Assembly (NCBI GenBank): GCA_000092065.1
Contig: CP000584.1
Direction: 5' to 3' (one strand)
Length of the DNA stretch: 64,000 nt
DNA from: Ostreococcus lucimarinus
Taxonomy: Eukaryota
Both the position numbers and the translations under genes were made by a program. The first letter of the stretch is position 1. Each line of letters begins with the position of its first letter. Under the pieces are notes generated by a model that did not search any database, had not been told where the DNA came from, and worked only from the letters and a program-made list of their open reading frames with translations. Positions 2,460 to 48,271 of this stretch are shown here, one piece after another.

Positions 2460-5156
2460 ATGTCGCGCGCCGTCGCCTCGCCGCTTCGCGACGTCAACGG
2501 CGCCGCCGCGCGTCGACCGGTGCGTCTCAAGCGTCGCGCGCTGTCCGACTCGTCCGACGACGACGCGTCGGACGAGGACGCGCCGGCGCCGGCGACGAAC
2601 GTCGACGCCGTCGCGGCGACGAACGTCGACGCCGTCGCGGCGACGCGCAAGCCCCTGCGATTGAAGGGCAAGGACGGCGGGCCGAAGTTTGAGCTCGACG
2701 CGGCGCTCGCGTCGAGGCTGTACGATCATCAGCGCGACGGCGTGCGTTGGATGTGGGGATTGCACTTGGCCGGGCGAGGCGGGATTCTCGCCGACGACAT
2801 GGGCCTGGGCAAGACGCTTCAGGCGTGCGCGTTCGTCGCCGGTTTGTTGCGCAGCGGCGCGGCGAAGCGCGTGCTCGTGCTCGCGCCGACGACGTTGCTG
2901 CCGCATTGGTTGAAAGAGCTCGAGACGTGCGGGCTGAGGCGAGGGGAGACGGTGTTTAAGTACTACGGCGGCTCGCGAGGGGCGCTCGACAAACAGTTGC
3001 GCGCGTGCGCGACGGGTCGAGGCGCGCTCTTGGCGTCGTACGGGATGGTGACGTCTCGCGCGAGCGAGCTCGGCGCGCCGAGCGACGAGGACGAAGCCGA
3101 GAGAGCGAGCGCGCGCGAGGGGCGCGGCGTCGCGCCGAAAGATTTCGCGGGCGAATTTCGCTGGGATTGGATCGTCATGGACGAAGGACACGCGTTGAAG
3201 AACGCGACGACGCGGCTCGCGCAAAAGGTTCGACAACTGCCCGCCAATCTGCGCATGATTGTCACCGGAACGCCGGTGCAAAACGCGCTCGGCGAACTGT
3301 GGTCGCTGTACGACTTGACGTGTCCGGGGCTTCTCGGCGGCGAAAACGAGTTTCGTCGACGATTCGCCAACAAGATCGCCGCCGGTCAAGCCGCGTCGGC
3401 GACGCAAAAACAACGATCGGAATCGAAAGAGCTCACGGCGACGCTGCGTCAAATGACTCGTCCGTACTTTTTGCGCCGCGACAAGAAGGAGGTCTTACTA
3501 GCCAAAGAGGATGTCGCGCCCGTCGACGACGCGAAGAAACCGAATAGCGCGGCCGCGACGTCGTGGAAGCACGTCAAGAACGCGCCTTCGGCGCTCGGGC
3601 AGAAGAACGATTTCATCGCGTGGATACCGCTTGAGCCGGCGCAATCGGCGCTGTACTCAAAATTCTTAGCCTCGAAACCCGTTCAGGACGCCATCAACAA
3701 AACCGGTTCGGCGATTTCGTGCATGAACGCTCTGAAGAGAATTTGCGATCACCCGACGCTGTGCGTCGCGGCGCGGGACGACGCCGACGTCGACGCGTCG
3801 CCGCCCGCGGAGGAGGAGGAGGAAATCGAAGACGAAGAAGACGCCGAATTGAAGAAGAGCTGCGCGGGCGAAGCCGCCGCGGCGGCAGCGGCGGCCGTTC
3901 GCGAGTGCGATTTCGACGCCGACGCTCTCGCCCGCGGCGCGTCGAGTTTGAGCGCCAAATCTAGATTTCTCATGGCCATGTTGGATCGGTTTCGCGCCGA
4001 AGGACGTCGCACGTTGGTCTTCTCTCAGTCGCAGGCGACACTGAACGTTGTTGAAGCGTGCATTCGCGAAGCGAACATCAAGTTCGTGCGAATCGACGGT
4101 AAAGTAAACGTCGACGAGCGAGATCGTCGCGTGACGCAGTTCCGTTCGAACGCAGACATTCCCGTCATGCTTCTCACCGCTCGCGTCGGCGGTCTCGGTT
4201 TGACGCTGACGGAGGCGACGCGCGTCATCATTTACGATCCGGCGTGGAATCCAACGACGGACAATCAATCCGTCGATCGCGCGTACCGCATTGGGCAAAC
4301 CAAAGACGTCGTGGTGTATCGTCTCGTCACGTGCGGAACGGTGGAGGAAAAGATTTACCGTCGTCAAGTCTTCAAGGGCGGCGTGTCCAAGTCGGCGACG
4401 GACGGCGTGAGCGGGAAGCAATACTTTGGCGCGGACGACGCGACTCAGCTGTTCGAAACGCGCGAAAACGCCATGCGCGCGAGCGATACGATGAAACAAT
4501 TGAACGCGTTGCACGCGGCGGATCGCAAGTGGACGGATGAGCTTCGCGCCGAGTTGCCGTATGTCGAGTCGCTGCCTTTTGTCTGCGGCGTGAGCGATCA
4601 CGATTTGTTGTTCAGCAAAGACGACGAAGCGACGACGAGCGGGTCGAAATCAAGCAGTGCCGCCGCAAAATCAGCGCCCGCGGGGGCGGCGACGACGCCG
4701 AAGGGAAAGGCGCCCGGCGGCGCGGCTTGGAAAAACGTCAACGCCGGGTGGGGAGGCGACGGCGGTTTGCTCGGCGGCGCCTTGCTCGCGGCGCTGACGC
4801 CACCGAAGGAAACGAAAAGCGCGACAAAGATGAAAATCGACGACGACGAGTCGCCCGAGCCCGTCTCCGGGGAGGCGAAGCTTAAAGCAAAAATCAAACA
4901 CATCGAAGACGACTGCGCCAAGTTGGGCGTGATTTTGAGCATGCCCGACGTCGTCGCCAAGATGCCCGACAAAGGCGAGAGCACTCGAAGGGCGATCGAA
5001 AAACAACTCGCCGAAAAATGCGTGCTCGAGGCCGAATACAACGCCAAGTACGCGGTCTCTGAGACGTTCTACACCCCTCAGAGTTCACCCAAAGGTTCGC
5101 CGCCGCCGGAAACCGTCGCCTCGTTGGCGCAATCCATCGATTCTTTCGAAATGTAA
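2460..5156 (+). CDS. SNF2-family DNA-dependent ATPase, ERCC6/Rad26 (CSB)-like; 898 aa with low-complexity acidic/Lys-rich C-terminal tail
   Basis: ATG at 2460. Motifs LYDHQRDGVRWMW...GGILADDMGLGKTLQ (helicase motif I), IVMDEGHALKN (DEGH box), TGTPVQNALGELWSLYDL, and helicase-C motifs (LLTARVGGLGLTLTEATRVIIYDPAWNPTTDNQSVDRAYRIGQTKDVVVYRL). Confidence 0.85.
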   Translation: MSRAVASPLRDVNGAAARRPVRLKRRALSDSSDDDASDEDAPAPATNVDAVAATNVDAVAATRKPLRLKGKDGGPKFELDAALASRLYDHQRDGVRWMWGLHLAGRGGILADDMGLGKTLQACAFVAGLLRSGAAKRVLVLAPTTLLPHWLKELETCGLRRGETVFKYYGGSRGALDKQLRACATGRGALLASYGMVTSRASELGAPSDEDEAERASAREGRGVAPKDFAGEFRWDWIVMDEGHALKNATTRLAQKVRQLPANLRMIVTGTPVQNALGELWSLYDLTCPGLLGGENEFRRRFANKIAAGQAASATQKQRSESKELTATLRQMTRPYFLRRDKKEVLLAKEDVAPVDDAKKPNSAAATSWKHVKNAPSALGQKNDFIAWIPLEPAQSALYSKFLASKPVQDAINKTGSAISCMNALKRICDHPTLCVAARDDADVDASPPAEEEEEIEDEEDAELKKSCAGEAAAAAAAAVRECDFDADALARGASSLSAKSRFLMAMLDRFRAEGRRTLVFSQSQATLNVVEACIREANIKFVRIDGKVNVDERDRRVTQFRSNADIPVMLLTARVGGLGLTLTEATRVIIYDPAWNPTTDNQSVDRAYRIGQTKDVVVYRLVTCGTVEEKIYRRQVFKGGVSKSATDGVSGKQYFGADDATQLFETRENAMRASDTMKQLNALHAADRKWTDELRAELPYVESLPFVCGVSDHDLLFSKDDEATTSGSKSSSAAAKSAPAGAATTPKGKAPGGAAWKNVNAGWGGDGGLLGGALLAALTPPKETKSATKMKIDDDESPEPVSGEAKLKAKIKHIEDDCAKLGVILSMPDVVAKMPDKGESTRRAIEKQLAEKCVLEAEYNAKYAVSETFYTPQSSPKGSPPPETVASLAQSIDSFEM
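2592..2639 (+). repeat. Perfect 24-nt in-frame tandem duplication (GCGACGAACGTCGACGCCGTCGCG x2) encoding ATNVDAVA x2 in the SNF2 N-terminus
   Basis: Read directly from the sequence at 2592-2639. Confidence 0.7.
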
Positions 5157-5245
5157 ATCACACGCACCATTCATTCGCGCGCGCATCGTTGACATTCTAC
5201 GCATACGAAATGTAACATCACAACAAAATATTGGCGACGCGGGCA

Positions 5246-5968
5246 TCAATCCCTCGGGTTCGCCCGCAACGCCTCCCGCAAGACGGCGTCGAATCGATTA
5301 CACCCCGCCGCGCACGCGTCCAACGCGCGCTCCGTCTCGTCCGCGTTCCACCGCCCGAACGTCTCCGTCTTCGCGTACGCCTCCATCGACGACATCTGCG
5401 CTAAAAACACCATCCCATCGCTCGTCTCGATCTCCTCGCGCGTCGGATCGAGCATCATCCTCTCCCCCGCCCGCGCGCACTCGCACGCGCTCACCAAGTC
5501 TCGGCACGCCACCCCCGCGCGCGCCAACGCCGCGGACGCCGCCAGCACGCACGCCACCGCCTCGCCCCCCCGCGCGTCCAGCACCGTCACGCACGCGTCC
5601 ACCTGCGTCTTCGGGAAGCTTTCCGTCAGCACGCTCGCGCTGAGCGCCTCCTTCACCGTCCGCGCCAAGCCGTCGTCCGCCGTCCTCGCGCCGCGTCCTC
5701 GCGCGCGCGCTCGGTTCGCCCCATCCAGCGCCCGCGCGCCCGTCGCGAACGGCGCGCGGTACGCGTCGACGTCCAGCGTCCCTCGATCGACGCCCGCGAG
5801 CTCGGCGCGGCCGCGGCGCGGGCCGTAGACGGCGCACGACGCCTTGGTGTCGCCGAGCTCGACGTACGCGGAACCGGCGGCGGCGGGGACGACGTCGAGG
5901 GCGACGACGAGGGCGCGGCAGTGCGCGTCGGCGCGCGCGTCTTCGCGAGGCGCGAGCGACGAGGGCAT
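5246..5968 (-). CDS. Exosome complex RNase PH-like subunit (Rrp46/Mtr3-type), 240 aa
   Basis: ATG at 5968..5966. RNase PH fold signature GSAYVELGDTKASCAVYGPRRG and a C-terminal RNase-PH domain 2 region. No catalytic phosphate-binding residues could be asserted. Confidence 0.7.
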   Translation of the reverse strand: MPSSLAPREDARADAHCRALVVALDVVPAAAGSAYVELGDTKASCAVYGPRRGRAELAGVDRGTLDVDAYRAPFATGARALDGANRARARGRGARTADDGLARTVKEALSASVLTESFPKTQVDACVTVLDARGGEAVACVLAASAALARAGVACRDLVSACECARAGERMMLDPTREEIETSDGMVFLAQMSSMEAYAKTETFGRWNADETERALDACAAGCNRFDAVLREALRANPRD

Positions 5969-29593: not shown

Positions 29594-30316
29594 ATGCGCC
29601 CGTACGACGCCGACGCCGACGCCTGGGATGACACCGCGCTCGTCCGCGCGTACGACGACGCGATCGCGAGGCACGGCGCGCCGTCGAACGCGCCGACGGC
29701 GCGACGACGAGGCTCGAACGAGGACGAGCGCGCGAACGACGCGCCGACGCGCTCGGGCGACGCGCGGCGCGAGGCGACGCCGCGGTCGAGCGAACACACG
29801 CGCGCGCGGGCGTCGCCGGTGCCGCATTACTACGCCGAGACGTCGTACGGGGACGAGTACGAGTACGAGTACGGCCGTCGCGCGCCGCCGCCGCCGCCGC
29901 CGCCGAGACGAGGCCACGACCCGTACGACGCGTACGGTGGGTACTACGCCGCGCGAGATGAAGACTATGGGTACTTTGAGGATGAGTTTGCGGCGTTCTC
30001 GCCGTTTAGACGCGGAAGAGGACCGCCGCGAGGACCGCCGCGAGGACCGCCGCGAGGACCGCCGCCGTCGCCCGGCGAATACGGTGGGTATCCTCATCGC
30101 GCGCCGCCGATGACGCCGCGAGGGATTCGCGCGACGCCACCGCGCGCGCCTCCGGATATGACGGAGTCCGCGCTCGAGACGGCGCGGTCGTACGAAGACG
30201 ACGGGTACGACCCGGACGAGCTCGCGAATTTACTCTTGAGTTGGTACTACGCGGGGTACTACACGGGAAGTTTTTCCCGACAGCCCCCGCCGCAGCCGTC
30301 GTCGTATCCGGGATGA
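29594..30316 (+). CDS. SMN: Survival-motor-neuron (SMN)-like protein without Tudor domain: N-terminal Gemin2-binding-like helix, Pro/RGPP-rich middle, C-terminal YG-box
   Basis: ATG at 29594. N-terminus AWDDTALVRAYDDAI matches SMN exon-2a motif WDDTALIKAYDKAV. C-terminus DELANLLLSWYYAGYYTGSF matches the SMN YG-box (LxxLLxSWYxxGYxTGxY). Poly-Pro and PPRG x3 lie between them. Confidence 0.6.
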   Translation: MRPYDADADAWDDTALVRAYDDAIARHGAPSNAPTARRRGSNEDERANDAPTRSGDARREATPRSSEHTRARASPVPHYYAETSYGDEYEYEYGRRAPPPPPPPRRGHDPYDAYGGYYAARDEDYGYFEDEFAAFSPFRRGRGPPRGPPRGPPRGPPPSPGEYGGYPHRAPPMTPRGIRATPPRAPPDMTESALETARSYEDDGYDPDELANLLLSWYYAGYYTGSFSRQPPPQPSSYPG

Positions 30317-30407
30317 GGACGAAGTTCATCGTAGAAAGTTAATATAGATGTTGTTATACCGTTCGAACGCGCTAAGCGGCGTAGTACCACGGACAGGACG
30401 GGCGCGC

Positions 30408-30914
30408 CTAGTAGAGGTCGCGTTCCGTGTTCACGGAATTCTTCATCGACGCCGACGCTATTCTCGCCTTGTCTTCAAGCTTCTTCTGTTTCGCCCTCTC
30501 TCGTTTGCGCTCATTCTTCCTCTGCGATTTCGACTTCTCCGCCCCTCCGTCGCCGTTGTCTCCTCCGTTCCCCTCCGTCGCCGGCTTCGGTTTCGGAATC
30601 GTCTTCACCCCCTTCGCCGTCGGTTTCGCCACGCTCTCGACCGCGGCTTCCATCTCTTTCACCATCGCGTCGTCCACCTTGGACGGTTTCGCGATCGGCG
30701 TTCCCGGAGCGTCGCCTCCTTTCCCGCGTTTGCCGCCGCCGCCGGCTTTCGGGCTCAGGCTCACCTCTTGAAAATCGCTCGCCGCCGCGCCCTTCGCGCC
30801 CTTCGCCGCCGCCGCGCTCTCGGGCGCTTTCGCCTCGCTCGACGACTTGCCGGACGTCGCGTCCGCGTCGACCGTCGGCGCGTCCACGGCGGGTTTGGAG
30901 CTCAAACAACCCAT
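30408..30914 (-). CDS. Hypothetical Lys/Ala-rich basic protein (168 aa) with N-terminal MGCLSSK dual-acylation-like motif
   Basis: ATG at 30914..30912. MGCxxS is the classic myristoylation + palmitoylation context. The remainder is low-complexity K/A/G-rich with a C-terminal KNERKRERAKQKKLEDK basic helix. Confidence 0.4.
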   Translation of the reverse strand: MGCLSSKPAVDAPTVDADATSGKSSSEAKAPESAAAAKGAKGAAASDFQEVSLSPKAGGGGKRGKGGDAPGTPIAKPSKVDDAMVKEMEAAVESVAKPTAKGVKTIPKPKPATEGNGGDNGDGGAEKSKSQRKNERKRERAKQKKLEDKARIASASMKNSVNTERDLY

Positions 30915-31196
30915 CGCGAGGGTTCGTCGGGGACGCGATCGAACGGTCGACGCGCGCGCGAGTCCTCGCGGTGCGCGCTCGAGCGCGCGCGCGCGCGTCG
31001 CACGCGCGTTTTACGACGCGACTGACCGCTCGCGGGCGTCGCGCGACGTCGAGACGTCGCGGTGTGGGGCGCGAACGGCCGAATGTGAGCAGAGGGGAAA
31101 CAGCGCGCCGACGCGGCGAGACGCGAATCGACGACGAAGGGCGGCGTCGCGGGTCGTGATTACAATTCGACGCGTTTTCGGAGACGCCGTCGGGCG

Positions 31197-32669
31197 CTAA
31201 GAATCGGCGCCAAACGTCGGTCTCGCGGGCGTGGGCTGGGCGAATTCGGCAAAGGCGAGGCGCAAATTTTGCAGCTCGCGGAGCGTCGGACTGGCGCTCT
31301 GGTCGGCGCGCGACGACTTGGGCGGCGGCGTCGGGAACGGGGCGAGGCTGGCGCGCGCCGGTGGCGCGATTTCGGAAGTTTGCGTCGATGATTCGCGAGC
31401 GGTCGTTCGGGCGTGAATTTCACGCACGGCGAGCTCGGATTCGCGGCGGCGGAGCTCGCGGCGAGAGTGCTCGGCGACGCGAGCGCTCGCCTCGGCGTTC
31501 CGGCGCGCGTCGGCGCACAGCTCGGTGATGGTTTCGGTGGCTTCTTCCGCGGCGACGGCGCGACGCTCGGCCATGGTGGCGCGAGATTCGGCCTGAGCGA
31601 GGTGTAAGCGGTACACCTCCGCGGCTTCCTCGGCGATGGCGTACGCCTCCGAGGTTTCCTCCCGCGCTTCCGCGGCGGCGGAGACGGCGCGCTTGAGCGA
31701 AAACACCACCGCGTGCGTCAAAGCGCACATGCGCGCCATGAGCTCGCGCAGCGTCACCGCGTGCTCTTCATCGTCGACGAGTTCGACGGCTTCGAGCCAG
31801 CGCACGAGCTGCTCGAGCGTGGGATCGGGATCGCGCAAATCCGCCGCCGCCGCCGACCACGAACGTTTCGTCTCGACGTCGTCCTCATCCGTCGACATCG
31901 CCGCGTCGTCCACGGAGGCCAGCTCGCTCGCGCGCTCTAAGACCATCATCACTCGCTTCATGAGCTCGACGACGGTCGAATACGCTTCGCTCTGCGCCAC
32001 GCCCCACTCCACCGCGGCTCCGCGCGCGTCCGTCCCGAGCGACGCGTCGCCGTCGTCCGAAGCGGTATCCGACGTCGTCGGCGTCGCCGCACCGCGCGCG
32101 CGTTCGACGTCGACCTCGTCCGCGCCACCATCGCCGCCGCCGCCGCCGCCGCCGCCGCGCCCGCGCGCGTTCCCACCCTTTCGCTCTCGACGCAAAAAAC
32201 GCAGCAATTCGTCTCGCCGGCGTTCGACGTCGCCGCGCACGCGCGCCTCCACGAGCGCCACCTTCTTCGCGAACGACGCCGCGCTCGGCGATCGCCCCGG
32301 CGTAAGCGCGACGTCACCGTCTCCCGCGCCTCTCGCCCGCACCGCCTCTTCCGCGCGCTTCAGTCTCGCCTCGGCGTCCTCGAGCTCGCGCCGCATTTCG
32401 ACTTCGCGCGGCGTCGCCTCGTCCCTCGCCTCCATCGCCGCCTCCGACCGCGCCTTCGCCTCGAGCGCCGTCAGCGCCATCGCCGCCGCCTCCATCCGCA
32501 TCGTTTTCTCCGCCTTCGCCTCTCGCCGCGCCTCGTCTCGCTCGCGTCGCGCGCTCTCGACGTCCATCTTGGCTTGCGTCTGCACCGCCTCGAGCATCCC
32601 ATCGCGGCTTTCGAGCTCCTCTCGCAGCGCCCGCGCGCGCCGTTCGAGCGCGTCGACGCCCTCGCGCAT
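31197..32669 (-). CDS. Hypothetical coiled-coil protein (490 aa)
   Basis: ATG at 32669..32667. Long heptad-like E/R/A-rich helices (…LEAKARSEAAMEARDEATPREVEMRRELEDAEARLKRAEEAVRAR…) and a poly-Gly linker. No enzymatic motifs. Confidence 0.45.
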   Translation of the reverse strand: MREGVDALERRARALREELESRDGMLEAVQTQAKMDVESARRERDEARREAKAEKTMRMEAAAMALTALEAKARSEAAMEARDEATPREVEMRRELEDAEARLKRAEEAVRARGAGDGDVALTPGRSPSAASFAKKVALVEARVRGDVERRRDELLRFLRRERKGGNARGRGGGGGGGGDGGADEVDVERARGAATPTTSDTASDDGDASLGTDARGAAVEWGVAQSEAYSTVVELMKRVMMVLERASELASVDDAAMSTDEDDVETKRSWSAAAADLRDPDPTLEQLVRWLEAVELVDDEEHAVTLRELMARMCALTHAVVFSLKRAVSAAAEAREETSEAYAIAEEAAEVYRLHLAQAESRATMAERRAVAAEEATETITELCADARRNAEASARVAEHSRRELRRRESELAVREIHARTTARESSTQTSEIAPPARASLAPFPTPPPKSSRADQSASPTLRELQNLRLAFAEFAQPTPARPTFGADS

Positions 32670-32821
32670 CGCGCGCGCCTTTTCGCGTCCCGAAGCGCCG
32701 CGTCCGGCGCTCGCGCGTCGCGGTGCGCCGCGCTCGGCGCTTCGGGACGCGCGCGCGGGACGATTTTCGCCGACCGCGCGCGTCGTTCACCCGTTCGCCG
32801 CGGAGCGCGGCGCGCGCCGGG

Positions 32822-32935
32822 ATGGGCAAGCCCTGGCTCGAGGGGTTCAAGTTCGCGACGTACCTCGCGGTGCCGATCGCGCTCACGGTGACGTTCGCGT
32901 TCAATCCGGACAACCTGAACGGCATCATTCGAAAC
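32822..32935 (+). CDS. Candidate PET100-like small TM protein, exon 1 (MGKPWLEGFKFATYLAVPIALTVTFAFNPDNLNGIIRN)
   Basis: ATG at 32822 inside what otherwise looks like a divergent promoter. It resembles the PET100/small COX-assembly-factor N-terminus (MGxKLExFxxxxYLxFPVAxxxxxN). The reading frame degenerates into an R-rich tail right after …IRN|GTGCGT. Confidence 0.4.
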
Positions 32936-33042
32936 GTGCGTTTCGTTCGAGTCGGGCGCGACGCGACGCGCGCGACGCGCGACGCGCGCGCGCGGACGTC
33001 GACTGACGAAGCGCTCGACGTCGATCTCGGTTCGCGACGCAG
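32936..33042 (+). other. Inferred 107-nt intron of the PET100-like gene (GTGCGT…CGCAG) with GACTGACGAAG 35 nt upstream of the AG
   Basis: Same donor and branch motifs as the SmD1, ASF1 and Vti1 introns. Confidence 0.35.
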
Positions 33043-33150
33043 CGCGCGTACGTGGTGTACCCGCCGGAGGGCCCGAAGCCGCCGCAATCGAAGCGAGCGC
33101 TGGACGCGTACCTGACGCGACGCGCGGCGGAGCGAAGACGCGAACGATGA
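33043..33150 (+). CDS. PET100-like exon 2 (RAYVVYPPEGPKPPQSKRALDAYLTRRAAERRRER*); its stop TGA overlaps the DAGK ATG (cgATGAgc)
   Basis: Spliced product is 73 aa. YPPEG is comparable to the conserved WPPEK of PET100. Confidence 0.3.
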   Translation, partial: RAYVVYPPEGPKPPQSKRALDAYLTRRAAERRRER

Positions 33151-34475
33151 GCGTCGCGACGACGGCGCGCGTCGGATGGCGTCGCGAGGGCGCGCGGAGA
33201 GCGCCGTCGCGCGGGAGGCGACGCGTGCGCGCGGTGGCGAGGACGCGCGGGGACGAGCGCGGGGACGAAGGCGGCGCGACGAAGGTCTTCGTCTTCGTGA
33301 ATAAGAAATCGGGAGGACGGCGGGGGAGGGAGGTGCTGCGGCGGTTGAGGGAGACGCTGAAACCGCCGCACGTGGTGCTCGACGCGACGAAAGTGCGAGG
33401 GGCGATCGATCGGGGCGAGGTGGATTGGGACGCGGAGACGCGCGTGCTCGTCGCGGGCGGCGACGGTACGGTCGGAATGGTGGTGGACGCGCTTCGACGG
33501 CGGCGTCGCGAGCCGCCGCCGATCGCGATCGCGCCCTTGGGCACCGGTAACGACCTGGCGCGCGTGTTAGGTTGGTCCGGCGACGTGTGGGATGATTCGA
33601 GATTGTTTAGCGAGCGGCGCGTCGTGAGCACGCTTCGGCGCGCGAGACTGCAACGCGTCGATCGATGGTCGCTCGAAATCACTCGCCCGCGACGACGATC
33701 GACGACGAAGAAATTGTTTAGCAATTACATGGGCATCGGTGTCGACGCGCGCGCGGCGTTGGCGTTCGACAGCGCGCGTAAAGATCGTCGTTGGACGTGG
33801 CTGTTCGTCCACGCGCTGACCAACAAGCTCCTGTACGCCGTCTTCGGCGCGCGCGATTTCATAGAGCACTCGTTCGCCGGGTTGAAGCGCGACGTCGAAG
33901 TCACGGTAGATGGAAAAGTGATCGATTTCCCCGAAGACACCGAAGGGATCATCTTGCTCAACATTAATTCCTTTTCGGGCGGCGTACGGATGTGGGCGAC
34001 GAGCGACGAGTTTACGAAATCGCTCAAAGACGACGGCGTCTTGGAGATCGTCGCCGTGAGCGGGGCGCTGCACTTAGGACAGCTCAACGCGCGATTGGCC
34101 AAACCCGTGCAAGTGGCGCAAGGATGCGACGTCCGCATCGAGCTCAAGCGCGATTTGCCGGTGCAAATCGACGGCGAGCCGTGGCTTCAGCGCGGCGCGG
34201 CCACCTTGCGCGTCTCGCTCAACGATTCGTTCACCATGCTCAGGCGTCCGCGTCAAGATCGAATCAACGACTTGCTCGCGCGTTGGTCACGCTCGAACGG
34301 ATTCGCGAGCGAAGACGACGACGCGACGTCGGCGTCGAGCGACGAGCGCCGCGCGAGACGTCGCCGCGCGTTCGCGTTCGCGTTCGCGTTCGCGCTATGC
34401 CTCGCGCTCGCCGCGTTCGTGTTCCCGTGGCGTCATCGGCTCGCGCGCCTCTTCGCGCTGCGCCTCGGGTTGTAA
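33147..34475 (+). CDS. Diacylglycerol-kinase-like lipid kinase (DAGK catalytic + accessory domains) with C-terminal TM anchor
   Basis: ATG at 33147. KVFVFVNKKSGGRRG…VLVAGGDGTVGMVVDAL…IAIAPLGTGNDLARVLGW (DAGKc GGDG and GTGND motifs) then DAGKa-like region. C-terminal FAFAFAFALCLALAAFVFPW hydrophobic tail. Confidence 0.8.
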   Translation: MSVATTARVGWRREGARRAPSRGRRRVRAVARTRGDERGDEGGATKVFVFVNKKSGGRRGREVLRRLRETLKPPHVVLDATKVRGAIDRGEVDWDAETRVLVAGGDGTVGMVVDALRRRRREPPPIAIAPLGTGNDLARVLGWSGDVWDDSRLFSERRVVSTLRRARLQRVDRWSLEITRPRRRSTTKKLFSNYMGIGVDARAALAFDSARKDRRWTWLFVHALTNKLLYAVFGARDFIEHSFAGLKRDVEVTVDGKVIDFPEDTEGIILLNINSFSGGVRMWATSDEFTKSLKDDGVLEIVAVSGALHLGQLNARLAKPVQVAQGCDVRIELKRDLPVQIDGEPWLQRGAATLRVSLNDSFTMLRRPRQDRINDLLARWSRSNGFASEDDDATSASSDERRARRRRAFAFAFAFALCLALAAFVFPWRHRLARLFALRLGL

Positions 34476-34500
34476 ACGTAACAAAAAGAACACAAAAAGA

Positions 34501-34528
34501 ACAAAAAAAATAAAAAGAATGAAAAAGA
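34501..34528 (-). terminator. RNA polymerase III terminator T-runs (on the minus strand) immediately 3' of tRNA-Lys
   Basis: Plus strand acaaaaaaaataaaaagaatgaaaaaga gives minus-strand TCTTTTTCATTCTTTTTATTTTTTTTGT, i.e. T5, T5 and T8 runs directly after the tRNA 3' end. The surrounding 34476-34530 is the only strongly AT-rich island in the window. Confidence 0.45.
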
Positions 34529-34710
34529 TACCGCGTACGGGGCTCGAACCCGTGACCACACGCTGTCCTTGAACAGCTCTCGGGCGCTCGCGCGCCCTCG
34601 TCGTGTCGTTGTGCGTCGCGAGTGCGACCTCGCGCGTTTAGGCTTACGCCGTCGAAGACTGATTAGAGTCTCTTAAAAGGCGTGCGCTCTACCAACTGAG
34701 CTAACGAGGC
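34529..34710 (-). tRNA. tRNA-Lys (anticodon UUU) with a ~109-nt intron at the canonical 37/38 position
   Basis: Minus-strand read: GCCTCGT-TA-GCTC-AGTTGGTA-GAGC-G-CACGC-CTTTTA-[intron]-A-GCGTG-TGGTC-ACGGG-TTCGAGC-CCCGT-ACGCGGT-A. The D-arm (GCTCAGTTGGTAGAGC) and T-arm (GGGTTCGAGCCCC) are canonical. The acceptor stem has one U-C mismatch plus one G-U pair. The intron is unusually long. Confidence 0.55.
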
Positions 34711-34864
34711 ATAGATGGCCGAAAGGACCGTAATATACGACATCCACGATTTTTGTCCCCCCCCAACCGCGACGTCGCGCGTTCGTGCGTGTTACGGTTT
34801 CTTTGCGCGCGCCGACCGACCGGGCGCGACATCTCGCGCGGCCGACATCGTCGCGCGCCCGGCG

Positions 34865-35656
34865 ATGTCGACGTCGGATCTCTCCGACGTCGAGACCGCG
34901 CGCGAGGCGCGCGCGGAGTCCGGTCGCGCCGCGTGCGCGCGCGTGCTCGCGACGCAGCGCGACTACTACCGCGTCCTCGAACTCCCGCGCGCGGCGAGCG
35001 CGGCGGACGTGAAGAAGGCGTACCGAAACCTCGCGCGCGTGCTGCACCCGGACAAGTGCGATGACCCGCGCGCGACGGACGCGATGGCGATCGTCACCTC
35101 GGCGCACTCGACGCTGACGACGCCGGCGCTGAGGGCGGCGTACGACTTGTACGCGGCGCGCGTCGACGTCGGCGACGCGAACGCGGATTCCTTCGGCGAG
35201 TGGCAGAGCAAGGAAGGCGCGGCGGCGGTGCATCTGCCGCCGTGGTTGATCAAAGCGATGGCGACGCCGGTGTTGGCGCAACTCATCGGGTTCTTGGCGC
35301 TGGTGCTGTTGTTGGCCGCGGCGGCGTTGGCGTTGGCGTTGGCGTTGGCGTACTTCGTCGTGCACATGGCGTTTTGGTTCGCGTGCTGTTTCGGGTGCTG
35401 CGGCTCGTGCTGGCCGCGTTACGGCATGGGCGCGCGCGTTCACGCCAAGCGTCAGGCCCGTTTCACGGAGATGCTCAAGGATTACGAGCGCGCCGCGATG
35501 GAGGCGTCGGCGCGCGGCGACGAGGGACCCGCGCCGACGGTTTTCTTCGCGCAGTGGAACGTCGACCACCCGGAGCCGGATTGGGTCGAGCGCATTCGCG
35601 AGGAGGACCGCGCCGAGGCCGCCGCGCGCGCGTCGCCGGCGTACGGCGCGACGTGA
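34865..35656 (+). CDS. DnaJ (J-domain) membrane protein with TM helices and Cys-cluster (CCFGCCGSC)
   Basis: ATG at 34865 (MSTSDLSDVE; the track ORF start at 34715 overlaps the tRNA). J-domain DYYRVLELPRAASAADVKKAYRNLARVLHPDKCDDP (HPD motif). Hydrophobic stretch LAQLIGFLALVLLLAAAALALALALAYFVVHMAFWFACCFGCCGSCW. Confidence 0.7.
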   Translation: MSTSDLSDVETAREARAESGRAACARVLATQRDYYRVLELPRAASAADVKKAYRNLARVLHPDKCDDPRATDAMAIVTSAHSTLTTPALRAAYDLYAARVDVGDANADSFGEWQSKEGAAAVHLPPWLIKAMATPVLAQLIGFLALVLLLAAAALALALALAYFVVHMAFWFACCFGCCGSCWPRYGMGARVHAKRQARFTEMLKDYERAAMEASARGDEGPAPTVFFAQWNVDHPEPDWVERIREEDRAEAAARASPAYGAT

Positions 35657-46804: not shown

Positions 46805-48271
46805 CTAAACCTCCCGAAACGGGTTCGTTTCGCGTCGTCGTCGCTGTTCGCTGCGTTGCCTCGTCTTCGTTCGAACGAAGCGATACACGATGACGCAAAA
46901 GCCAACGACCCAAGTAAGGCTTCCCATCGTCCACATGCGATGCATCCGTTCTTCGTGCGCAATTTCTCGCTCGACTTTTAACGTGGCTTTCCTCGCTAAC
47001 AGACGCTCTGTGGCGTCACCCGCACGCTCCGCTCGATGCATCACCGGGACTGGCGTCGGCTTTTGCGTCATTCTGGGTTTCACCTTAGGATCCTCTCGCG
47101 ATGGCTTCATCGGTACGTCTCTTCCTTTAGGTATTATCGGCAACGACTTTGTTTCGACTCGATGACTACGAGCGCCCCGCCCGCATTTCTCATCGTTGTA
47201 CTTTTTCACTGCGTCGTTGATCGCCGACACCGTGATGTACATAATTTTCACCTTGATGTAATTGTGACGCTCTTGCTGCAACGCGTGCGCGCTCGGGCGC
47301 TTCGGGTAAGGCACAACGGGGAACGGTTCCACATCTCGCGTGGCGCACGTCATACGCTCCAAGTGCCCAGGCTCCCAATGTTTATCCCACGAGTACGGGC
47401 CCTCGTCCATCCTCAAACCGTAGTGCACGATGAACGGGTCGGCGCTTGCCTCATCCCACGGCTTCATACCTGCGTACAGCTGTACGGATCGCATCACGTT
47501 GTGCGTCAACCCCGCCAACCCGCAACCGAAGACGAACCCGTACATTTCCGAAATCCACGGCCTTGGCGATTCCTCGGAGACGTACACGTCGCCGGTGCCG
47601 CGATACGGAAACCAAATCCTCTTATCCATGCGCACCTTCACCGTTTGCGCAAACCAGTGCGGCGTCATGTTCACAAAATCTTCAGCGTCAAATATCTCCC
47701 ACCCACCCACGGGCGCGAGCCTTTTCTCCACCTCCTCGTCCACGAACCACTTGGCCATTCCGTTCTTCGTGCCGACGAGATAATCGTATTGACCGCTCGC
47801 GGCGACGCCCTTGCTCGCTGGAATCTCTCTCACGCTCAGCGGTTTTAGCAACAACATGTCCGCGTCTAGCTTCACCACCCACTTTCGATCCGTGCCGACG
47901 TTTTGCGCCCAATGATTCATCCCTCCCGGCAAGTTATACGCAGAGTATCCGTCGTCGTCCCCAAACTTTTCCTTGGCGTACCACACGAACGACGGGCACT
48001 TGACCGTGTCCGGCACCACGTCCATGTGTTCGTACCGCGCGTACTCGTCATCCGTGCACGATATCAATCGCGTCATGCGTCCAGGGCTGCCAATCGCGCG
48101 CCACGACTCATACAGCGCGCGCGCCTGCCAAGTCATGTACGGTTGGCAATCGGCGGAAAAGACGTAGTGATAGTCATCGATCTCGCGTCGTTCGCTCGCG
48201 TCGTCGAGGTCGGCGAACGCCAGGGATGCGCGCGCGAGCAGCGCGACGAGCGCGAGGGCGCGCGCGCGCAT
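46805..48271 (-). CDS. HPAT/SGT-family glycosyltransferase-like protein (hydroxyproline O-arabinosyltransferase / peptidyl-Ser galactosyltransferase family) with signal peptide and C-terminal TM
   Basis: ATG at 48271..48269. Signal peptide MRARALALVALLARASLA. Collinear similarity to plant HPAT: YHYVFSADCQPYMTWQARALYESW (vs FHTAVTASDSVYNTWQCRVMYYWF), VVKLDADMLLLKP (vs ILMSEPDHIIVKP), WISEMYGFVFGCGLAGL (vs WVLEMYAYAVSSALHGV), FIVHYGLRMDEG (vs YIIHYTYGCDYD). Confidence 0.6.
   Translation of the reverse strand: MRARALALVALLARASLAFADLDDASERREIDDYHYVFSADCQPYMTWQARALYESWRAIGSPGRMTRLISCTDDEYARYEHMDVVPDTVKCPSFVWYAKEKFGDDDGYSAYNLPGGMNHWAQNVGTDRKWVVKLDADMLLLKPLSVREIPASKGVAASGQYDYLVGTKNGMAKWFVDEEVEKRLAPVGGWEIFDAEDFVNMTPHWFAQTVKVRMDKRIWFPYRGTGDVYVSEESPRPWISEMYGFVFGCGLAGLTHNVMRSVQLYAGMKPWDEASADPFIVHYGLRMDEGPYSWDKHWEPGHLERMTCATRDVEPFPVVPYPKRPSAHALQQERHNYIKVKIMYITVSAINDAVKKYNDEKCGRGARSHRVETKSLPIIPKGRDVPMKPSREDPKVKPRMTQKPTPVPVMHRAERAGDATERLLARKATLKVEREIAHEERMHRMWTMGSLTWVVGFCVIVYRFVRTKTRQRSEQRRRRETNPFREV

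Follow-up and report, generated by a model that had tools for sequence, protein, structure and literature searches.

A probable missed two-exon PET100 gene overlapping a diacylglycerol kinase gene in Ostreococcus lucimarinus, a candidate bicistronic locus

The stretch of Ostreococcus lucimarinus DNA analysed here (64,000 nucleotides of contig CP000584.1, hereafter the window) very probably contains an expressed two-exon nuclear PET100 gene on the plus strand at 32822-33150, a judgement that covers the existence of the gene, the splice and the assignment to PET100 together; no evidence against the gene itself was found. PET100 is a single-pass protein of about 70 amino acids in the inner mitochondrial membrane that acts late in complex IV assembly in yeast and human. 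The coding sequence (CDS) is 222 nt long, its spliced product has 73 amino acids, and its stop codon overlaps the start codon of a diacylglycerol kinase (DAGK) gene with which it may share an mRNA. What was overlooked is thus a small member of a familiar protein family, and the locus that contains it is probably a further instance of a type already described. An earlier note on this DNA had proposed that the ATG at 32822 opens a hidden small gene inside an apparent divergent promoter, and its coordinates hold to the base (Table 1).

Because the intron is 107 nt long, splicing changes the reading frame. Without splicing, the frame enters Arg-rich sequence at the GTGCGT donor, as the earlier note had described, and runs to a stop at 33113-33115 for a reading of 97 amino acids. 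Removal of the intron joins exon 1, whose hydrophobic helix occupies residues 9-27 (FKFATYLAVPIALTVTFAF), to an in-frame continuation that carries the invariant YVVYP..G motif and the basic tail. The acceptor, the branch motif and the 35-residue continuation with its basic C-terminus had likewise been proposed beforehand, and each is retained in the gene structure given here. Long ORFs that overlap PET100, such as those at 31636-33006 on the plus strand and 32471-33724 on the minus strand, were rejected as Arg/Ser/Ala-rich artefacts of stop-poor 62% G+C DNA.

The apparent divergent promoter is much reduced by the presence of the gene: only the 152 nt between the ATG of the coiled-coil gene (32669, minus strand) and the PET100 ATG are the true bidirectional promoter, and they also hold the 5' UTRs of both genes. 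The plus strand is free of ATG over the 200 nt that precede the PET100 start codon. A search of the interval for known RNA elements in Rfam gave nothing credible; MIR8788 scored 22.7 bits where the cut-off is 124.

Table 1. Features of the PET100-DAGK locus, with positions in the window, and PET100-DAGK spacers in the window and related loci. Spacers are counted from the stop codon of PET100 to the earliest in-frame ATG of DAGK.
Feature	Position	Strand	Details
Divergent promoter interval	32670-32821	.	152 nt, from coiled-coil gene ATG (32669, minus strand) to PET100 ATG
PET100 start ATG	32822	+	context gggATGG
PET100 exon 1	32822-32935	+	114 nt, 38 codons; product MGKPWLEGFKFATYLAVPIALTVTFAFNPDNLNGIIRN
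Spliceosomal intron	32936-33042	+	107 nt; absent precisely in contig L001
Intron donor GTGCGT	32936-32941	+	
Branch motif GACTGACGA	33001-33009	+	GACTGAC type; branch A 33006, 36 nt short of the intron end
Intron acceptor CAG	33040-33042	+	
PET100 exon 2	33043-33150	+	35 codons + TGA; product RAYVVYPPEGPKPPQSKRALDAYLTRRAAERRRER*
ATGA stop/start overlap	33147-33150	+	DAGK ATG 33147-33149, PET100 TGA 33148-33150, cgATGAgc
DAGK ORF	33147-34475	+	442 aa; DAGK_cat and DAGK_acc, Pfam E = 1e-46 and 8.8e-26
Spacer, window			-4 nt
Spacer, L020			-4 nt
Spacer, L015			+4 nt
Spacer, L018/19			+11 nt
Spacer, L016/17			+24 nt
Spacer, L021-23 (O. tauri-like)			+32 nt
Spacer, L007			+42 nt

The splice is borne out by a 2145-nt contig (L001, Logan SRR28369223) that encodes an identical 73-residue protein (P0001) without interruption. 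The contig aligns with the window end to end, positions 32144-32935 being joined directly to 33043-34394 and continuing into DAGK, so that the junction 32935|33043 named in the earlier note is found there exactly. Overall it differs from the window by 23 substitutions and one indel, none of which falls in the PET100 CDS; the substitutions lie in the coiled-coil gene (nine), the 152-nt interval (six) and the 5' part of DAGK (eight), and the sole indel is in the same intergenic interval.

The junction is also implied by homologues that have no intron: P0025, P0028 and P0002 read IIRNR[AR]YVVYPP[ED]GPKPP across it, and P0025 and P0028 are continuous over the junction position (IIRNRAYVVYPPEGPKPP). 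More than 15 read-through ORFs from metagenomes share exon 1 (95-100% identity in P0005-P0015) and diverge right after IR[ND]-V-R, which corresponds to the GTGCG donor. An intron interrupts the same codon in five lineages (the window and L020; the O. tauri-like L002 and L021-23; L015; L018/19; L016/17), and all five combine a GTGCGT donor and a CAG acceptor with a GACTGA[CT] branch motif situated 22-37 nt ahead of the intron's 3' end. The sequence of the intron drifts across these lineages and its length ranges from 69 to 127 nt. In the exons, dN was well below dS in all 15 pairwise PET100 comparisons (for example, 0.114 against 0.96), and the resulting dN/dS of about 0.1-0.4 indicates that the PET100 exons are under purifying selection. 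PET100 has one intron in Ostreococcus and is intronless in Micromonas-like relatives.

A scan of JGI contigs with a degenerate splice-junction pattern recovered only L007 (= L013) and no further spliced transcripts. L007 (JGI 3300016754, 1932 nt) comprises a 171-nt leader, an intronless PET100, a 42-nt spacer, a full DAGK of 490 amino acids and a 30-nt trailer, and it ends just past the motif GTGTTGTAGTA, which it has in common with L016. The match between L007 and L016, the genomic contig closest to it, sets in exactly where exon 2 starts and does not extend further upstream. Taken as a whole, L007 looks like a complete transcript.

It might be supposed that L001 and L007 instead derive from the genomes of strains in which the intron has been lost, in which case they would be uninformative on splicing or transcription. 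SRR28369223 and JGI 3300016754 may be either RNA or DNA libraries, and L001 extends past the promoter into the divergent gene. This explanation is nevertheless very improbable, since it requires two independent and precise losses in two clades, while upwards of 15 further contigs from that clade retain an intron at this codon, and since the ends of L007 (171 nt before PET100 and 30 nt past the DAGK stop, just beyond GTGTTGTAGTA) look like those of a transcript. Even in genomic contigs, an exact and frame-preserving deletion of the intron would confirm the exon boundaries.

The spliced product matches the Pfam family Pet100 (PF09803, InterPro IPR018625) at 31.2 bits (E = 2.7e-07), above the curated gathering cut-off of 24 bits, with residues 1-72 of 73 aligned on profile positions 1-68 of 73, which is essentially the whole protein. 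The unspliced reading reaches 19 bits, over residues 1-26 alone; splicing raises the score by 12 bits. This profile search upholds the PET100-like identity that had been suggested for the product. Among the 39 relatives returned by a sequence database search, the 11 that were aligned all match Pet100 (best E = 1.9e-09) and have 21 invariant columns, including Y41-V-V-Y-P45, G48 and P51-P52, such that YVVYP..G..PP is invariant or nearly so in the 11 sequences. By the crude test of Kyte-Doolittle hydropathy, the strongest 19-residue window is residues 9-27 (mean 1.58), the sole strongly hydrophobic segment of the protein, and the C-terminal tail is basic with a net charge of +6. The predicted arrangement of a single N-terminal hydrophobic segment, an aromatic-P-P-E motif and a charged tail is the PET100 layout. 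A search by sequence among solved structures in the PDB found no relative of the 73-residue product.

Yeast and human PET100 is an inner-membrane chaperone that functions in late cytochrome c oxidase assembly and interacts with subunit VIIa (PMC3334569). By homology to these proteins, a mitochondrial location and a role in cytochrome c oxidase assembly may be assigned to the algal product. The PET100 sequence AYVVYPPEGPKPPQSK is a candidate target for mitochondrial-membrane proteomics.

An ORF that holds the first AUG of a leader and ends at the AUG of the main ORF could also be a mere regulatory uORF that limits translation of DAGK and whose peptide has no function. Such a role is extremely improbable for an ORF whose product depends on removal of an intron, matches a curated family over its full length and above threshold, and evolves with a dN/dS of about 0.1-0.4; the 21 invariant columns, moreover, extend to Micromonas-like species in which the downstream gene is a different one. 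An alga respiring via cytochrome oxidase is, besides, expected to have a PET100.

In a collection of 15 billion sequences, the 73-residue protein had no NCBI, UniRef or EukProt record and was present only in Logan, as a cluster of one; none of its 39 relatives is a gene model of strain CCE9901. Given that no NCBI, UniRef or EukProt record was found, PET100 appears to be unannotated in the O. lucimarinus CCE9901 reference genome. Two other long ORFs of the window are exact CCE9901 proteins (XP_001417492.1 and XP_001417500.1). In O. tauri RCC1115 there is a partial, mis-spliced model (BE221DRAFT_65327), which is spuriously extended at the N-terminus and whose displaced splice sites introduce an extra VPTMMTQ. 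As for the DAGK model of CCE9901, the exact 442-residue ORF is absent from the collection, and no named CCE9901 protein is among the 40 cluster members listed. Human PET100 was likewise missed by annotation owing to its small size (PMC3334569) and remained unannotated until 2012, and a 2018 review of plant cytochrome c oxidase biogenesis (PMC5877523) lists no plant counterpart, the plant entries for Pet100/PET100 being dashes.

The gene downstream is well defined. DAGK relatives at 99% identity also have 442 amino acids, and the ATG at 33147 is the sole workable AUG start, because residue 46 already opens the catalytic domain, within which the next in-frame Met falls. The TAA stop sits in a TGTAA (34471-34475) that is followed by an A-rich tract. 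PET100 is followed by DAGK in every Ostreococcus-like locus retrieved (seven loci, representing five lineages). The overlap of the PET100 TGA with the DAGK ATG, which the earlier note had pointed out, is present in the window and recurs in the close relative L020; the ATGA arrangement is limited to these two and L001, and the lineages with spacers of +4 to +42 nt share no spacer sequence. The adjacency of the two genes across the genus, with almost no spacer, is an observation that goes beyond the earlier note. In the O. tauri RCC1115 assembly the DAGK frame lacks an ATG, and a different gene structure in that strain was considered and rejected, since the assembly has a 1-nt deletion there relative to three O. 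tauri-like contigs. Downstream of PET100 in Micromonas-like contigs there is not DAGK but a family-4 (MraY-like) glycosyltransferase, at a distance of 44 nt (L011) to about 124 nt (L006), and the PET100-DAGK pair appears to be restricted to Ostreococcus-like genomes.

A PET100 mRNA necessarily reaches into the coding sequence of DAGK, since the PET100 stop lies past the DAGK ATG. It is a candidate reading, which we hold to be about evenly balanced, that PET100 and DAGK are carried on one bicistronic mRNA. For PET100 itself, transcription would start in the bidirectional promoter at 32670-32821, the intron at 32936-33042 would be removed by splicing, and the first AUG (32822) would be translated to give the 73-residue protein. 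On the bicistronic reading, DAGK would be made from the second AUG, either through leaky scanning past the PET100 AUG, as shown for green-algal bicistrons, or through reinitiation where stop and start overlap in ATGA. Of these two routes leaky scanning is the likelier for a bicistronic mRNA, because the overlap is not conserved and the spacers share no sequence.

In a transcript that starts in the 152-nt interval, the first sense-strand AUG is that of PET100 and the second that of DAGK. Between these two start codons the spliced mRNA contains no other ATG in five of six lineages and two in L007. Depletion of ATG was considered as evidence of leaky scanning and rejected by synonymous recoding of the PET100 protein, which gave no significant avoidance of ATG (P = 0.4-0.8); only 6.9% of 217-nt CDS windows within the window are free of ATG, and the ATG-free state is permissive rather than evidential. 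The start contexts are gggATGG for PET100, with a purine at -3 and G at +4, and acgATGA for DAGK. The 15 long-ORF starts in the window are mostly (a/g/c)cgATG, which are too few for a usable consensus. The context of the PET100 AUG is not obviously weak.

The bicistron has to be weighed against two overlapping but separate units, which we consider somewhat short of evenly balanced. Under that alternative DAGK would be expressed from its own shorter mRNA starting inside the PET100 intron or exon 2, and the PET100 mRNA would terminate inside the DAGK ORF or where that ORF ends, at a cryptic poly(A) site, with little DAGK made from it. These genomes are very compact, and apparently independent same-strand neighbours are close in them, as are DnaJ and the CobW_C gene (70-90 nt apart in L018 and L020) and a pair in the window (135 nt, at 48271/48407); with such genes only 70-135 nt apart, regulatory sequence must often lie inside neighbours, and embedded promoters are therefore plausible. 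The ATG-free state is accounted for by the protein sequence alone, and the PET100 AUG context, not being clearly weak, is compatible with separate mRNAs. The contigs fit both cases equally: L001 and L007 are short-read assemblies that would merge two overlapping transcripts, and the bicistron is to that extent unproven. L001 in addition continues across the promoter as far as the divergent gene, which calls for head-to-head overlapping transcripts or for some DNA in the library.

However, spacers of -4, -4, +4 and +11 nt leave separate units zero intergenic room, and the adjacency has been kept in five Ostreococcus-like lineages despite drifting intron, spacer and tail sequences. The next AUG after that of PET100 is that of DAGK, and green-algal bicistrons that have been proven, one of them with PET100 as ORF 1, share this architecture. 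Nor is there a TGTAA between PET100 and the DAGK stop. This motif behaves like a poly(A) signal in the window: in seven of the 15 long ORFs it coincides with the stop or lies no more than 65 nt from it, only four sense copies are found in the roughly 33 kb of ORF sequence, and the sole plus-strand copy between 31603 and 35678 is the one at the DAGK stop. A PET100-DAGK fusion produced by alternative splicing was also considered and rejected, the two ORFs being in different frames and DAGK being set apart in the cDNA-like L007 by a stop codon, 42 nt of spacer and an ATG of its own.

A more far-reaching proposition is doubtful, namely that across Ostreococcus a single bicistronic mRNA is the sole form in which the pair is expressed, and that green algae may have repeatedly and independently captured PET100 as a leader ORF ahead of differing membrane or lipid enzymes. 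The partners in such captures would be DAGK in Ostreococcus, the MraY-like glycosyltransferase in Micromonas-like algae and 3-beta-hydroxysteroid dehydrogenase in Auxenochlorella. Were repeated capture true, small AUG-poor mitochondrial assembly factors would be favoured as first cistrons, and the dosage of the downstream enzyme would be tied to respiratory-chain biogenesis.

With PET100, the reference genome of a model picoeukaryote gains an assembly gene of the respiratory chain that had been missing from it. The pair adds a candidate lineage-specific bicistronic mRNA in Mamiellophyceae, in which polycistrons have so far been inferred only by colinearity with Chlamydomonas loci, and its series of spacers from -4 to +42 nt, with or without overlap, could serve as a natural comparison of leaky scanning and reinitiation. 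No general principle is changed, as PET100 and green-algal bicistrons, including one led by PET100, were already known.

Among known proteins, the product resembles yeast Pet100p and human PET100 in size class, N-terminal hydrophobic helix, aromatic-PPE motif and charged tail. Human PET100 also has 73 amino acids. The motif is YVVYPPEGPKPP in the green-algal proteins, whereas in the human protein it is WPPEK, as quoted in the earlier note.

Overlapping stop and start codons (AUGA or UAAUG) serve termination-reinitiation in calicivirus VP2 and influenza B BM2. The PET100-DAGK loci differ from these systems in that the overlap is not conserved among them (the others having spacers of +4 to +42 nt), no conserved upstream motif is seen, and ORF 1, at 73 codons, is long for unaided eukaryotic reinitiation. 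In vivo tests in green algae have likewise argued against reinitiation.

The closer comparison is with green-algal nuclear bicistronic loci as they have been defined (Gallaher 2021; Duenas 2025), and the colinear same-strand ORFs, very short inter-ORF distance and conservation across species that characterize such loci were all found for PET100-DAGK. The pair itself is absent from the main texts of PMC7896298 and PMC11291117 and from those parts of the PMC11291117 supplements that were accessible, and full-text literature searches pairing Ostreococcus with 'bicistronic' or 'polycistronic' returned no mention of it. The conserved green-lineage bicistrons TOM22-SDHAF3 and CDC26-TTM3, in which ORF 2 is translated via leaky scanning (PMC7896298, PMC11291117), similarly place a small and often mitochondrial protein upstream of a larger unrelated one and keep their colinearity, but they were found from Chlamydomonas or Auxenochlorella and are placed in O. 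lucimarinus by colinearity alone.

Of the Chlamydomonas, Chromochloris and Auxenochlorella loci, the one that PET100-DAGK most resembles is the PET100 locus of Auxenochlorella protothecoides. There PET100 (UTEX250_A12.36865, 201 nt) is ORF 1 of an Iso-Seq-supported bicistron whose ORF 2, 22 nt downstream, encodes 3-beta-hydroxysteroid dehydrogenase (UTEX250_A12.36860); stop and start codons overlap at some loci of that alga, and leaky scanning has been shown in vivo (PMC11291117). In both algae a short PET100 ORF directly precedes, on the same strand and with a tiny spacer, the gene of a larger enzyme of lipid metabolism. The two differ in the partner and in the data behind them, 3-beta-hydroxysteroid dehydrogenase with long-read support in Auxenochlorella and DAGK with short-read contigs alone in Ostreococcus. 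Given that Auxenochlorella belongs to Trebouxiophyceae and Ostreococcus to Mamiellophyceae, the two PET100-led arrangements are probably independent.

The real 38-codon exon of PET100 is easy to overlook because artefact open reading frames overlap across 31636-33724. Three long ORFs (257-456 aa) lie here in other frames or strands than the real genes they overlap; they are rich in Arg, Ser and Ala, had no family match, and were rejected as genes, being artefacts of stop-poor sequence of 62% G+C.

The NCBI model of the O. tauri PET100 orthologue, BE221DRAFT_65327 (P0004, 'partial'; 4001-4407 of the RCC1115 locus, L002), is mis-modelled. Against the splice sites supported by homology, the donor is set 4 nt too far downstream and the acceptor 17 nt too far upstream, which inserts VPTMMTQ, and the model also carries a 34-aa upstream extension. 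The downstream DAGK reading frame is broken in the RCC1115 assembly (KZ155771.1) by a 1-nt difference at ~4555 of L002, where it reads GGCGCGG-GGGGG versus GGCGCGGCGGGGG in three O. tauri-like metagenome contigs (compare L021, ~3456). The difference probably accounts for the truncated 255-aa NCBI DAGK model, and it could be either an assembly error or a genuine mutation. A Logan contig (L014, SRR23274481) is 100% identical to 30036-32988 and terminates at 32988 inside the PET100 intron, where the sequence is rich in GCGCGACGCG; an assembly bubble between spliced and unspliced forms, or low-complexity sequence, could be the cause of this break.

The divergent coiled-coil gene has no Pfam match and is kept in every complete Ostreococcus-like genomic locus retrieved. 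Its exact sequence occurred only in Logan among the searched collection, and the reference model may therefore differ or be missing.

At the 3' ends of genes, TGTAA overlaps the stop codon or sits no more than 65 nt past it in 7 of the 15 long ORFs in the window, and the TAA stop itself forms part of the motif in DAGK and in ORF 2460-5156. Sense-strand copies are depleted within ORFs (4 in a total of ~33 kb, window-wide). Placement and depletion are consistent with TGTAA acting as the poly(A) signal in the window. A tRNA gene lies 54 nt beyond the DAGK stop in convergent orientation; its anticodon loop, CUUUUAA, identifies it as Lys-UUU, and ~110 nt are inserted 3' of the anticodon. ARAGORN reported no tRNA over 34400-34900 despite the Rfam match.

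Features of the window and of the two Micromonas-like contigs
Feature	Source	Position	Strand	Remark
Coiled-coil gene, 490 aa	window	31197-32669	-	divergent from PET100
Long overlapping ORF	window	31636-33006	+	
Long overlapping ORF	window	32314-33087	-	
Long overlapping ORF	window	32471-33724	-	
tRNA gene, Lys-UUU	window	34529-34710	-	Rfam 45.7 bits
TGTAA examples	window	5152, 34471	+	at/near long-ORF stops
TGTAA examples	window	16107, 31164, 48346	-	at/near long-ORF stops
PET100, then downstream	L011	1529-1750, then 1795-2703 and 2836-3333	one strand	
PET100, then downstream	L006	4001-4264, then 4388-5887	one strand	

Two Micromonas-like contigs (L011 and L006; 66-73% G+C) were also compared. 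In these PET100 has no intron, and the next gene downstream, in the same orientation, is of the Glycos_transf_4 (MraY-like) family, across a gap of 44 nt spanning a (CA)n tract in L011 and ~124 nt in L006. The pair may constitute a second PET100-led bicistron with another partner.
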